Below are positions 56,283-61,566 of a stretch of DNA of 64,000 nt, in pieces. Source of the DNA: Candidatus Poribacteria bacterium (lineage in GTDB: Bacteria > Poribacteria > WGA-4E > WGA-3G); assembly GCA_965232545.1 (NCBI GenBank), contig OZ246979.1:5811287-5875286 (forward strand), in the 5' to 3' direction. Below the pieces are notes generated by a model. The model was not told where the DNA came from. It ran no database searches and saw only the letters and a program-made list of their open reading frames with translations. The position numbers and the translations under genes were made by a program. Within the stretch, counting starts at the first letter, position 1. Each line of letters begins with the position of its first letter.

Positions 56283-56417
56283 AGTCTAACTCCTTACTCC
56301 CACCTACTGCAAGTGGGGAAAATATGTTTTTTCGTGTAGACAGCGAACGTCAAAAGCGAATGACTTTAGAATGGTTTTTAATCTATCATGCCTCATATTT
56401 TTTGTCCAATGGTTAAT

Positions 56418-57780
56418 TGTCACTTACCCCCATTTTTTTCTGAAGGTATGTGTTAAAAGGTTTTTGTTGTTAAAAGTGTGAGAAACTCAGTAGGTTTATG
56501 ATAAAATACCTCCTTACAGCGAAGGTTTGTAAACGGAGTTCACAAAACATGTAAGGAGGTATTTTATGAAAAAGACGTACCCGAAACGGGTAAATCCGGA
56601 ACCCATGCTAACACGTTTTGCGGAAATATGCAAGTCTGTTGCTATGAAAAAACCGATGTTCCGCAACTTCTGCTTCGTCTTGGTCGCGATAAGTGTTGCG
56701 AGAACGTTTCGGATCCATGAGATTGCGTCGCGCTTGCCGATTGTTGTTGCCCGGGAGAAGTCGAAAGAGAAAAGGTTTCTGCGGTTGCTTGAAACCCCGC
56801 TGCCTCTTGATGCGCTCAAAGGTGCTTGGTTTGTATCGGTTGTCGGTTGGTTTTCCAAGAGTGCTAACGATCATCTGTATTTGCTTGTTGATGAGACGGA
56901 TCTGATTGCGGGGTGGAAAGCTTTGGTTGTTGCGATCCCCTTTCGACATCGTGCGATTCCTGTGTTCTCCTTTATCTATAGCGATGTCCAGATCCGCGAG
57001 GGTATCTATAAGAGTCATAACGAGATCATCCGATACTTCTGTGGCTATGTTTACCAAGAGGCTTTAGGCATTGTGTCGAAACACGACCAACGTCCGGTTC
57101 TGGTCTTTGATCGGGGTTTTGCGCGTGCGCGATACGTCATCAAGTTTCTCAAGGCGCGGGATATCCTATTTGTGATGCGTGTGCCGAGGCATGTCAGTAT
57201 TACGCTTGATGGAAGTCTGAAGAAGCTTGATGACCTCGACGTTGGCTGGTATCCGCATATCCTGTATCAGGCGCACGAACAGATACCGCTGCAACTTTAT
57301 ATTATCAGAGACGCAGGCTTCAAAGACCCGATGTATCTGATTTCAAATCGTCTCAGTGGACATCAGATACATCACTGCTATAAACGCCGCATGCAGATTG
57401 AACACGGGTTCCGAGATATAAAGTCGTGCTTCGGATTTAGAAAACTCGTCTTGAAAAAACCGACACAAGTCCGTCTTGATGTCCTGTGGTTGTCTGCCTG
57501 CCTCTCTTATGGATTGCTTTTTATCAGTTATGAGAAGGTTGCCTCTACACATTGGGAGAAAGCCTACAACAGTAATAACAGAAAAAGTTTTTCTGTTATT
57601 ACTGTTATCAAAAACGTTCTCACGGACTTATGGAACCAACACTTTCTTCTCTCCTTTTTCACGCAGATACATCCGAGGGGGGATCCGCTTTCGCAGGCAC
57701 TTGCCAACTAACTTTCTCACACACAAACCTCACGGTATCAACCACAATCTACCCTCGAAAAAAAATGGGGGTAAGTGACA
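56418..57780 (+). mobile_element. IS4-family insertion sequence
   Basis: TIR TGTCACTTACCCCCATTTTTTT at both ends; target duplication TGGTTAAT (56410-56417 / 57781-57788; 10 bp if the ends are GTCAC). Confidence 0.9.
56566..57711 (+). CDS. IS4-family DDE transposase
   Basis: LVDETD, FDRGF, YKRRMQIEHGFRDIK (Y-x2-R-x3-E-x6-K). Confidence 0.88.
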   Translation: MKKTYPKRVNPEPMLTRFAEICKSVAMKKPMFRNFCFVLVAISVARTFRIHEIASRLPIVVAREKSKEKRFLRLLETPLPLDALKGAWFVSVVGWFSKSANDHLYLLVDETDLIAGWKALVVAIPFRHRAIPVFSFIYSDVQIREGIYKSHNEIIRYFCGYVYQEALGIVSKHDQRPVLVFDRGFARARYVIKFLKARDILFVMRVPRHVSITLDGSLKKLDDLDVGWYPHILYQAHEQIPLQLYIIRDAGFKDPMYLISNRLSGHQIHHCYKRRMQIEHGFRDIKSCFGFRKLVLKKPTQVRLDVLWLSACLSYGLLFISYEKVASTHWEKAYNSNNRKSFSVITVIKNVLTDLWNQHFLLSFFTQIHPRGDPLSQALAN

Positions 57781-57876
57781 TGGTTAATTTGCTTGAAAAA
57801 AGGCTTAGAATTTGCTAAGATAATGCCTATTAGATCCGCGAAACAATCTATAACGGATGGTAAACGCACGAGAAAT

Positions 57877-58083
57877 GTCAATAACCCCCGAATAAATTCG
57901 GGGGACCTGTGTGAAGCGTATACCAAACGTCCACTCCACAAGTTAAACTATTTTCTACAGTAATATATCGTAATATCTGTGGTGGTTCACAAAAGTATTT
58001 AGGATACTCCCCTCGTCCTATATCAATGCCGATATTACGATCTGGAAGGGGCAATATACAACCCGAAAGGGAGATTACAAACT
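57877..58083 (+). ncRNA. omega-RNA (HEARO-like) scaffold
   Basis: 11-bp long-range stem 57967-57977/58031-58041; TAGGA-tactcccctcg-TCCTA hairpin whose loop complements ggaagggg (58044-58051); terminal CCC-GAAA-GGG hairpin just before the ATG. Confidence 0.7.
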
Positions 58084-58258
58084 ATGTTTGTTCCGGTGAC
58101 GAGTCAAACAGGTCAGAAGTTGATGCCTACGCGTGCGAATAAGGCGGGCATGCTGATTAAGAAAGGTTTAGCCACGCCTTGTACTGCCTACGGTTTTTTA
58201 GGCCACTCCCTAAAACAAGATTGTGCTATAATACAATCTCACTGAAAGGAGTTATCTA

Positions 58259-58546
58259 ATGGCCAAACGAAGGAAATTCACCTCCGAGTTTAAGACGGAA
58301 CTCGTTCTGGAGGTTCTTAGCGGTGCGACTTCTCAAGCAGAAGTGTGTCGGCGTCATAATCTCAATGAGGACCAACTCTCAAAATGGAAGCAGCAGTTTC
58401 TTGAAAAAGCCCCCTCGCTGTTTGATTCTACTGATAAACCGTCCAGCGAGGTCTCCGAGAAGCGTATCACTCACCTTGAGCATCTCGTTGGGAGAATGGC
58501 CGTGGCGTTAGACATCCAAAAAAAACTATTGACAGGGTTGGACTAA
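58259..58546 (+). CDS. IS3 transposase OrfA (HTH)
   Basis: RRKFTSEFKTELVLEV...VCRRHNL...LSKWK; A8C slippery site near the 3' end. Confidence 0.88.
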   Translation: MAKRRKFTSEFKTELVLEVLSGATSQAEVCRRHNLNEDQLSKWKQQFLEKAPSLFDSTDKPSSEVSEKRITHLEHLVGRMAVALDIQKKLLTGLD

Positions 58547-58548
58547 CG

Positions 58549-59385
58549 TTGTCTGAAAAGCGATGCTTCATTTCGGCATTGCAAAAGGAGCATTCCGTGC
58601 GAGATATTTGTGGCATCCTCGGTGTCAACCGGGGTAGTTTCTATTATCACCGCCAAGAGGATCCGTCCGAAGCGGTCCTGCGATCAGAAATAGAGAAACT
58701 TGCCGGACAGTATCCGAGATACGGGTATAGGCGTATCACGCAGTTGCTACAGCGTCAGGGATACACCGTTGGGACCCGACGCGTCGCTGGGTTGATGAAA
58801 GAAATGAATCTCTTGGTCTCCGTCAAGCGGGTTTCCGGTCACACCACAAAATCGCTTCAGGGGGAGAAACCCTGGACCAACCGGCTCGAAACCCTTGAGG
58901 TCTCTCGTCAGGATCAGGTCTGGGTTTCCGATATTACCTATGTGCGTCTCAAGGGACGCTTCATCTATCTCTGCCTGCTCATGGATGTTTTCACCCGGAT
59001 GATCAGAGCTTGGCAACTCAGTCAGCACTTGACACAATCTCTGACGCTCAAACCGCTGAAAGAAGCATTGGACCACAGCGTCCCGGAGATTCATCATTCC
59101 GATCAAGGCGTGCAGTATCTTTCAAAGGTCTATGTTACCACGCTCGAAGCACATGGCATTGAGATTTCTGTCGCTCAGCGAGGACGCCCTTGGGAGAACG
59201 GGTATGCCGAAAGACTCATCCGAACCCTCAAGGAGGAAGAAGTCCACCTCAATGACTATCAAAGCATTACCGAGGCGAGAGATCGCATCGGACAGTTTAT
59301 CGAACAAGTATATCACCAGAAACGCCCACATTCGGCGTTAGGATATTTGACACCTATGGAATTTCAGCGAAAAACCTTGTCTTAA
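58549..59385 (+). CDS. IS3 transposase OrfB (rve integrase core)
   Basis: YGYRRI, WVSDITY, HHSDQGVQY, ENGYAERLIRTLKEE. Confidence 0.9.
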   Translation: MSEKRCFISALQKEHSVRDICGILGVNRGSFYYHRQEDPSEAVLRSEIEKLAGQYPRYGYRRITQLLQRQGYTVGTRRVAGLMKEMNLLVSVKRVSGHTTKSLQGEKPWTNRLETLEVSRQDQVWVSDITYVRLKGRFIYLCLLMDVFTRMIRAWQLSQHLTQSLTLKPLKEALDHSVPEIHHSDQGVQYLSKVYVTTLEAHGIEISVAQRGRPWENGYAERLIRTLKEEEVHLNDYQSITEARDRIGQFIEQVYHQKRPHSALGYLTPMEFQRKTLS

Positions 59386-60393
59386 CTTTGCGAAATTGTG
59401 GCCCAAATAAGCGTATGCACTTCACCTTATTGGTCTAATGGTATATTCTGTATCAGACTTAACTATGCGACCGAAGACGCATACACGCAAGATATAGTCG
59501 TTGGTGTAGACCCCGGTAGTAAGAAAGAAGGCTTTACCGTCAAATCAGAGGCACACACTTATTTGAATGTGCAAGCAGACGCTCACAGCAAGGTTGGCAA
59601 GAAAGTTGAAAAGCGTCGTGAGTTGCGGAGAGGTCGAAGGTCTCGTAAATGTCCGAATCGAAAACAGAAAAAGCACAATCTATCTAATAGAGAACGTGTC
59701 CCCGCAGGCACGCGTGCGAGATGGGACTGGAAACTTCGGATATTGGATGGGTTGTCCAAACTGTATCCGGTTACACACGTATGTGTTGAGGATATTAAGG
59801 CACGCACTATAAAACGTGCGAAGAGGTGGAATCAATCGTTTAGCCCCCTTGAAGTCGGTAAAAAATGGTTCTATACCGAAATTCGTAAACGGTGGGAACT
59901 GTTAACTTTACAAGGTTGGGAGACGAAAGAAATACGAGATAGGTTAGGTCTTAAGAAGTCCTCAAAGAAGTTAGCAGAAACCTTTGACGCTCATTGTGTA
60001 GATAGTTGGTGCTTGGCGTATCACACGGTTGGGGGTTCGGGTGTCCCTGATAACACAGACTTACTGTGTGTTTCACCGATACCGATAAAGCGAAGAGAGC
60101 TCCATAGACAACAGGAAGCGAAAGGTGGTAAACGCACACGGGTGGGTGGCACTGTATTAGGTCAAGGAAACCTTGTGAAAAATACATTGATTCAGCATGT
60201 CAAATACGGTCTAACACGACTTGCTGGTGTTAACGCAAAGGGTTTGTTTTCGATATACAGTATGGAAAACAAACGATTAACCACAGGGGCGAAGAGGTCT
60301 GATTTTAGAGTGCTCACACGCCTGAACTTTTACTATAGGAGCGGTGTTTCCTCCCCTGAATGAATTCAGGGGTTTCCACACCGAAAATAAGAG

Positions 60394-61566
60394 ATGAGAA
60401 TTCTACACACCGCCGATTGGCACATCGGACAAAAACTCCACGAACGCTCACGACTTGACGAACACAAACAATTCTTGGACTGGCTCCTTGAGACAATCCA
60501 AGCGCGTAAGGTTGAACTCCTCCTCGTTTCAGGTGATATCTTTGATACAGCCCTCCCCTCATCGGACTCGACGAACCTCTATTACCAATTCCTCTATCGT
60601 CTTTATGATAAAACGGATGCATACGCGGTAATTACCGCAGGCAATCACGATTCACCCCGACACTTGGAAGCCCCACGAGAGTTCCTTGAGATGGGCAGAA
60701 TTTACGTCGTCGGACTTACGGATGAACCCGCCAAATGTGTCTTCACCTTCCCGCGTAACAATCCACGGGTTGCTGTTGCTGCTGTTCCATTCCTCTCAGA
60801 AAGCGATCTCCGACACCTTTCGTATGAGACGGAGGCAGATCGAAGTGAACGCTATCGTGAACGGTTCAAAGCGTTCTATGCCGATTGCGTTGCTGCCATG
60901 CCAGCGGATCTCCCCAAAATTTTAATGGGACATCTCTTCGTTCAAGGCGGAAAAATAAGCAATTCCGAGCGGAATGTCCAGATTGGCGGAGCGACCGCTA
61001 CACATGCTGGCGATTTCCCTAAAGATGTCAGTTATGTTGCCCTCGGACATCTCCACAGACCGCAAACAATCAGCGGTGCTGATTATCCTGTCCGGTATTC
61101 TGGTTCACCGATCCCGCTGAGGTTCAACGAAGCCGATTATCGTAAAAAGATGTATCTGCTGGAATTGGTTGACGACGACACGCTCATCCGTGATGAGGAA
61201 ATTGAGATACCCGTCTTTAAAGAATTATGTACCGTTGAAGGTGATGAAGCATCGGTAACATCAGACGCTATGGCTGGGGACTGGAACGGTAAGTATATCC
61301 AAGTCAAACTGCAATTAAATTCCCCAGCAGTCGGCATCGGCGATAAAATTCGGCAAGCATTCAGCGATCGTGGTGGCGATGTTTTAAGCGTTGAACTTGA
61401 ACAGCCGGAGGCGAAGGAAGGACCGAAAATCTCCGTTGAAGACATGAAGCGTCCTGAAGAAATTTTCGAGCAGTTTCATAGAAAAAAATTTGATGGCGAA
61501 CCCCCCGACGACATTTTGATGCAAACATTTAAAGAATTAGTTCAGATGGTTGAGGACTCCGAATGA
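60394..61566 (+). CDS. sbcD: exonuclease SbcCD subunit D
   Basis: LHTADWHIG, VSGDIFD, AGNHDS, LMGHLF, ALGHLHRPQ, YSGSP. Confidence 0.93.
   Translation: MRILHTADWHIGQKLHERSRLDEHKQFLDWLLETIQARKVELLLVSGDIFDTALPSSDSTNLYYQFLYRLYDKTDAYAVITAGNHDSPRHLEAPREFLEMGRIYVVGLTDEPAKCVFTFPRNNPRVAVAAVPFLSESDLRHLSYETEADRSERYRERFKAFYADCVAAMPADLPKILMGHLFVQGGKISNSERNVQIGGATATHAGDFPKDVSYVALGHLHRPQTISGADYPVRYSGSPIPLRFNEADYRKKMYLLELVDDDTLIRDEEIEIPVFKELCTVEGDEASVTSDAMAGDWNGKYIQVKLQLNSPAVGIGDKIRQAFSDRGGDVLSVELEQPEAKEGPKISVEDMKRPEEIFEQFHRKKFDGEPPDDILMQTFKELVQMVEDSE

Follow-up and report, generated by a model that had tools for sequence, protein, structure and literature searches.

The 64,000-nucleotide stretch of DNA analysed here (the window; contig OZ246979.1 of Candidatus Poribacteria assembly GCA_965232545.1) very probably carries, at positions 57877-60393, a non-autonomous IS200/IS605-type (ISC1/OMEGA) element in which an omega-RNA gene is followed by isrB, the gene for a 343-amino-acid (aa) RuvC nickase that lacks an HNH domain. 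The isrB gene is split by an intact insertion sequence (IS) of the IS3 family; without IS3 and one copy of its CCT target duplication, the element measures 1269 bp. IsrB is the smallest known RNA-guided nickase of the Cas9 lineage and few orthologs have been characterised (six; PMC9581776), among them that of Desulfovirgula thermocuniculi (DtIsrB; structure 8DMB), which serves as the main point of comparison below. All features described lie on the + strand.

An isrB gene split by an IS3-family element

As it stands, the gene is present in two pieces. Codons 1-32 (58084-58179) encode the peptide MFVPVTSQTGQKLMPTRANKAGMLIKKGLATP, the first part of a PLMP domain with the motif KLMP at residues 12-15; from there the reading frame enters the IS3 element and meets a stop at 58245, giving a 53-aa product. 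Codons 33-343 and the stop codon follow at 59428-60363, within a 321-aa open reading frame (ORF; 59398-60363) whose GTG start sits inside the right end of IS3. For genome annotation, this 'start-less' 321-aa ORF and the 53-aa stub are one interrupted isrB gene. The interrupting element (58180-59424; 1245 bp) has the hallmarks of the IS3 family and nothing unusual: orfA, encoding an HTH_Tnp_1 protein (58259-58546; Pfam/NCBIfam), and orfB, encoding an rve/DDE transposase in the -1 frame relative to orfA and ending at 59385 (NCBIfam transpos_IS3, 1.7e-80); an A8 slippery run (58518-25) that would permit a -1 frameshift and a 375-aa OrfAB fusion; imperfect terminal inverted repeats of the TG...CA type (TGTACTGCCTACGG... 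and, as reverse complement, TGAAGTGCATACGC...); and a 3-bp target duplication, CCT, at 58177-58179 and 59425-59427, within the 3-4 bp typical of the family. An exact-protein look-up of the orfA product gave no record.

Deletion of 58180-59427, that is, of IS3 and one CCT copy, yields a 1032-nt ORF of 343 aa. A preliminary description made from the sequence alone had proposed this in-frame fusion, and the coordinates it gave for the 5' fragment, IS3 and the 321-aa ORF at 59398 all hold. The restored junction, GLATP|YWSNG, is the same in 12/12 intact homologues (342-343 aa). More directly, an ENA scaffold found via the downstream SbcD protein (L083) contains the same sbcD locus (4576 bp aligned, 99.9% identical); its 343-aa isrB is uninterrupted and identical to the reconstruction at 1032/1032 nt. 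The IS3-free allele is therefore still present in another public assembly, so the insertion is recent, and the earlier view of a recent insertion into an otherwise undamaged coding sequence now has an identical intact allele as its evidence; that allele, together with hundreds of intact relatives in Poribacteria, also supplies the uninterrupted copies that the preliminary description had suggested looking for. The IS3-family element entered isrB at codon 32/33 after the IsrB element had inserted. Because L083 lacks IS3 at an otherwise identical locus, one could suppose that a repeat was misplaced by the assembler and that IS3 within isrB is an artefact, but we regard this as highly improbable: the insertion bears an exact transposition signature, with TG-starting inverted repeats, a perfect 3-bp duplication and an ORF restored by removing one copy of it, whereas misassembly would create no target duplication. 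No second IsrB, IS3 or omega-RNA copy was found elsewhere in the 64-kb window. The isrB copy in the window appears to be inactivated, since its PLMP domain is split and truncation of the PLMP domain abolishes DtIsrB activity (PMC9581776).

Protein family and selection on isrB

The reconstructed protein is an IsrB, an HNH-less RuvC protein and predicted nickase, by sequence, predicted fold and catalytic residues, in agreement with the family assignment made earlier. Profile searches of the kind proposed with that assignment matched residues 3-157 to Pfam RRXRR (4e-28) and found no HNH domain in Pfam or NCBIfam. The best sequence match in the PDB was IsrB 8DMB (5e-32 for a single-sequence search and 1.4e-38 for a profile search), IscBs matching the N-terminal part only, and full-length DtIsrB (P0121) is 32% identical over 297 residues. 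Residues were mapped from a 68-sequence alignment, in which D60 of RuvC I (59509-11), E153 of RuvC II (59788-90) and H221 and D224 of RuvC III (59992-94 and 60001-03) align to DtIsrB D65, E159, H226 and D229, respectively; D60 and E153 are invariant (68/68), D224 is present in 67/68, and the E153-H221 spacing is 67 residues compared with 66 in DtIsrB. R315 aligns to R323, the arginine of DtIsrB that reads the target-adjacent motif (TAM), and is conserved in 67/68 sequences.

The predicted structure follows the same plan. A first AlphaFold model, from 13 close homologues, had a predicted local distance difference test (pLDDT) score of 40 and was discarded; adding homologues from the DtIsrB side raised the score to 80, and the AlphaFold2 model from this diverse alignment (pLDDT 80.1, predicted template modelling score 0.79) retrieved 8DMB first in a Foldseek search of the PDB (E 4.7e-24; template modelling scores 0.70/0.72; 351 columns, full length), ahead of IscBs and then RuvC resolvases. 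Residues 3-59 correspond in the alignment to the PLMP domain of DtIsrB and are modelled as a beta-sheet and a helix (pLDDT >90); within its motif, L13, M14 and P15 are found in 67, 67 and 68 of the 68 sequences, and position 12, K here, is P in 51/68. An Arg-rich bridge helix (KKVEKRRELRRGRRSRK; modelled helix about residues 88-106) aligns to DtIsrB residues 92-112, and a putative TAM-interacting (TI) domain occupies about residues 281-343 (modelled strands 285-330, pLDDT 87-91). Judged by the domain map of Hirano et al. 2022 (PMC9581776), the two proteins share the order PLMP, RuvC I, bridge helix, REC linker, RuvC II, short HNH linker, RuvC III, P-lock/WED and TI, with the REC linker short as well, and they share the catalytic D/E/H/D and the TAM-reading Arg at sizes of 353 aa (DtIsrB) and 343 aa (here). 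They differ in overall sequence, only 32% being identical; in two positions, DtIsrB having PLMP and Q326 where the present protein has KLMP and Thr; and in their hosts, DtIsrB coming from a thermophilic Firmicute and the present protein from uncultivated, sponge-associated Candidatus Poribacteria known only from metagenome assemblies.

IscBs (OgeuIscB, 7XHT/7UTN; GstIscB of ISGst5) likewise combine a PLMP domain, a split RuvC, a bridge helix and a TI domain, but they carry an HNH domain and cut both strands, whereas the IsrB described here, without HNH, is expected to place a nick in the non-target strand only. An IscB that had recently lost its HNH domain, outside the IsrB lineage, might also produce the 85-bit match of the N-terminal half to the NCBIfam IscB model (guided_IscB) and the ranking of IscBs as next-best fold matches. 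The probability of this is minimal, however, because the match covers only model positions 3-157 of 314, falls under the 175-bit cut-off and stops at RuvC II; because DtIsrB aligns over RuvC II, the HNH linker and RuvC III without domain-size gaps; and because the same architecture recurs in thousands of 340-350-aa proteins.

Relatives of this IsrB are plentiful. A protein search returned 3099 matches, the best 120 of which are 76-90% identical and 329-375 aa long (mostly 340-344 aa); within these 120, all named ones are from Candidatus Poribacteria. A search of one genome per species gave 257 relatives, and the best 80 loci, which were kept, all lie in Poribacteria metagenome-assembled genomes, with up to 9 in a single genome; intact isrB copies in Poribacteria number in the hundreds. 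Public relatives, 73-92% identical, are annotated as 'RRXRR domain-containing' or hypothetical proteins of Candidatus Poribacteria, and a search of a literature library found in it no paper linking Poribacteria with IsrB or IscB. The earlier proposal of a candidate new ortholog is thus narrowed: the protein is an uncharacterised member of a known, abundant family, but its intact allele and hundreds of its relatives are already public under generic names. That proposal also concerned the gene and IS3; the omega-RNA, the ends of the element, its TAM and the empty site come in addition to it.

Sequence comparison indicates that this family is under purifying selection and that its copies are maintained, functional genes, with a ratio of non-synonymous to synonymous substitution rates (dN/dS) of 0.07-0.15 between the reconstructed gene and 11 relatives, and a length of 340-343 aa in 78/82 copies. 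One copy (L023; OX639992.1) is cut to 165 aa, which shows that other decayed copies exist in the family. Alternatively, isrB might have been, by the time IS3 arrived, either a pseudogene in decay or a domesticated regulator with a dead nuclease, and the reconstruction would then restore no function; IscB/IsrB copies are mostly non-autonomous and many of them undergo decay, 1/82 related copies is truncated as above, and the motif here is KLMP instead of PLMP. We consider this very unlikely because none of the four RuvC residues has been lost, nor has the Arg-rich helix or the TAM-reading Arg; because the low dN/dS, the constant length and the compensatory evolution of the omega-RNA described below argue for maintenance; and because each copy has its own flank-derived guide, as expected for homing but not for a fixed regulatory target.

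Omega-RNA, guide and element ends

The omega-RNA scaffold (57877-58083; ~207 nt) begins GTCAATAACCCC and extends to the isrB start codon, with one further helix spanning the ATG and reaching to about 58096. Across ~80 copies, conservation starts sharply at 57877 and everything 5' of it is copy-specific: the sequence there differs in every copy and, in empty sites, runs straight into ATGA.... The host flank directly 5' of the scaffold (57857-57876) provides the predicted 20-nt guide, ATGGTAAACGCACGAGAAAT, its length being borrowed from DtIsrB (PMC9581776). A first RNAalifold alignment (60 sequences, gap-rich) gave a poor structure and was replaced by a cleaned 53-sequence alignment, whose consensus fold comprises ten helices together with two pseudoknots. 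In these 53 sequences, 94% of cells are paired as opposed to 27-44% with slid partners, compensatory changes occur in 28-30 pairs, and the observed values were reached in 0/500 shuffles. Pseudoknot 1 (ACCA/UGGU) is a loop-loop interaction that links a stem-loop lying within the 5' stem to a stem-loop of the central region, with a covarying pair that is AU in 24 and GC in 22 sequences; pseudoknot 2 joins a hairpin loop to the single strand before the terminal hairpin through an invariant CCCC/GGGG. The terminal hairpin itself, CCCGAAAGGG, covaries and carries the Shine-Dalgarno sequence. Covariance model R1 scores the window copy at 229 bits, and the RNA is intact because IS3 sits 96 nt downstream of the ATG. 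The DtIsrB omega-RNA likewise lies upstream of its gene, ends at the start codon with a Shine-Dalgarno terminal hairpin and forms two pseudoknots (PMC9581776), and IscB omega-RNAs likewise take their 5' guide from the transposon flank. Some copies of the family contain insertions of 40-70 nt, hairpin-like themselves, which lie within the terminal Shine-Dalgarno hairpin in L002 (5776-6045), L044 and L057 and in the loop after the CUACAGU segment in L032.

The opposite, TAM-proximal end (60353-60393; the left end in TnpA convention) is conserved in 81 copies up to a terminal NTGA. In the window it consists of a 20-nt palindrome, CCCCTGAATGAATTCAGGGG (60353-60372), that extends across the isrB stop codon, with TTTCCACACCGAAAATAAGAG after it; throughout the family, the palindrome across the stop is followed by ...CCGAAGAT..., the end abuts [A/G]TGA and the copies diverge beyond it. 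The abutting motif in the window is ATGA (60394-60397), the predicted TAM and transposase target motif, whose ATG serves as start codon for sbcD (60394-61566). Over the 81 copies the terminal motif is ATGA in 71, GTGA in 8 and ATAA in 2; an A follows it in 52/81. With [A/G]TGA in 79/81 copies, the element ends point to a TAM of the NTG(A/G) type, located 3' of the target on the non-target strand, the type used by characterised IsrBs (PMC9581776). The DtIsrB element has at this end an identical 20-nt palindrome extending over the stop codon, and it adjoins TTGA, which is the experimentally determined DtIsrB TAM (PMC9581776); after the palindrome, CCGGAAGAT...TTGA in the DtIsrB element (L089:2555-2595) stands against CCGAAAAT...ATGA in the window, for proteins of which only 32% is identical. 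GstIscB uses TTCAT (Meers et al. 2023, bioRxiv 10.1101/2023.03.14.532601), a TAM it has in common with the TnpA target and the reverse complement of ATGAA; here, ATGA is followed mostly by A.

The boundaries are fixed by empty sites. Searching JGI metagenomes for the exact empty-site pattern gave 0 matches, and empty sites were found via SbcD homologues instead: four relatives (L084-L086 and L088), with SbcD 87-95% identical, are without the IsrB element and without the IS4-family element that lies further upstream in the window, read ...GAAAT|ATGAGAATT at the site and have sbcD called from the same ATG. When IS4 (together with one copy of its target duplication) and 57877-60393 are removed from the window, the remainder is colinear with these relatives (...GGTAAACGCACGAGAAAT|ATGAGAATTC... 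at the junction in the window, ...GGTAAACGTACGAAAAAT|ATGAGAATTT... in L084). The element is therefore exactly 57877-60393, and it inserted immediately 5' of ATGA with no duplication of the target. Public data thus hold empty, element-bearing and IS3-disrupted alleles of one site, from which boundaries, guide and TAM are fixed without experiment.

Proposed mechanism and genomic neighbourhood

Studies of DtIsrB (PMC9581776) and the homing model for IscB-type elements (bioRxiv 10.1101/2023.03.14.532601) suggest how the intact allele would act. Transcription reading through from the sbcD promoter would yield an RNA composed of guide and scaffold, and the resulting ribonucleoprotein would make a nick in an empty allele's non-target strand at a guide match followed by ATGA, a step extrapolated from the DtIsrB and GstIscB work; nicking would then favour the return of the element through recombination once TnpA had excised it, and TnpA would have to come in trans. 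A promoter-like site identified by consensus scan, TTGAAA-17-TAAGAT with a TG extension (57793-57821), is probably the native sbcD promoter, now upstream of the guide and omega-RNA; the same position in L084 and the other empty-site relatives reads TTGGAA-17-TATAAT. That the sbcD promoter points into the omega-RNA agrees with the published need of IscB-type omega-RNAs for transcription from outside the element. Even with its own isrB split, the window omega-RNA could still load into IsrB made from other genome copies; standalone omega-RNAs work in trans with IscB (PMC9581776).

Several observations weigh against the identification of the locus as an IsrB element of this kind, or against its proposed activity. 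The promoter match at 57793-57821 was not above chance in the consensus scan. Rfam HEARO (RF02033) gave no match to the window omega-RNA even at E <= 10, whereas it matches the 262-nt DtIsrB omega-RNA at 56 bits, itself under the family's gathering score; model R1 picks up no more of the DtIsrB RNA than its 5' stem-loop, and the scaffold here is shorter, at ~207 nt. Homology to characterised omega-RNAs therefore rests on organisation, with no significant full-length match: the window omega-RNA is IsrB-like in organisation and of a divergent subtype, and the failure of HEARO says something about the RNA subtype but nothing about the protein family. In the protein, T318 (Thr in 13/14 poribacterial sequences) takes the place of Q326, which reads TAM position 4 in DtIsrB. 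Nicking of the non-target strand by the poribacterial clade is a predicted activity. Present-day mobility of the element is unproven, and no search aimed at TnpA was made. Only if activity is shown would this clade, with its shorter scaffold, offer possible compact nickase tools.

The position of the element suggests a wider pattern, which we put forward tentatively and with somewhat less than even confidence: the poribacterial IsrB clade may combine its 343-aa nickase with a compact omega-RNA subtype of ~207 nt missed by current RNA family models, and its ATGA TAM may direct the elements precisely onto the start codons of co-oriented host genes. After in-silico excision, an ORF of 100 codons or more begins at the NTG in 34/68 copies, and the TAM ATG is the first possible start of such an ORF in 20/68 copies compared with 2.4% of 1796 control ATGA sites, counts in which the copies (loci L001-L082) are not all independent and gene starts are not taken from annotation. 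For sbcD in the window, insertion at a start codon is proven by the empty sites. If the pattern is true, insertion would create operons running from a host promoter through omega-RNA and isrB to the host gene, the element gaining transcription and the host gene staying intact. A mere 30 nt separate the isrB stop from the sbcD ATG, and directly upstream of that ATG the native sequence has given way to the element end, AAGAG. Expression of sbcDC may now depend on read-through and on coupling with isrB and, in the window, also on transcription through or out of IS3.

Outside the IsrB element, and of interest as context only, an IS4-family insertion sequence occupies 56418-57780, with 31-nt terminal inverted repeats, a 381-aa DDE transposase ORF (56566-57711; Pfam DDE_Tnp_1, NCBIfam IS4) and a target duplication of 8 bp (TGGTTAAT; 56410-56417 and 57781-57788); its flanks are contiguous in the empty sites L084-L088. 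It lies ~5 nt upstream of the putative sbcD -35 hexamer (57793-57798) and 96 nt upstream of the omega-RNA. Rfam searches at gathering thresholds (whole window) and at E <= 10 (57500-58300) returned only chance microRNA-like matches to a palindrome, namely a perfect inverted repeat (19-nt arms, 1-nt loop; 57568-57606; AACAGTAATAACAGAAAAA / TTTTTCTGTTATTACTGTT) in the 3' part of the IS4 transposase ORF, which is the source of these matches. An upstream PhyH-like gene gave no record in an exact-protein look-up. Counting IS4, the IsrB element and IS3, three insertions have therefore accumulated between the PhyH-like gene and sbcD, and one relative (L087) carries a different DDE_Tnp_1 element upstream of sbcD.

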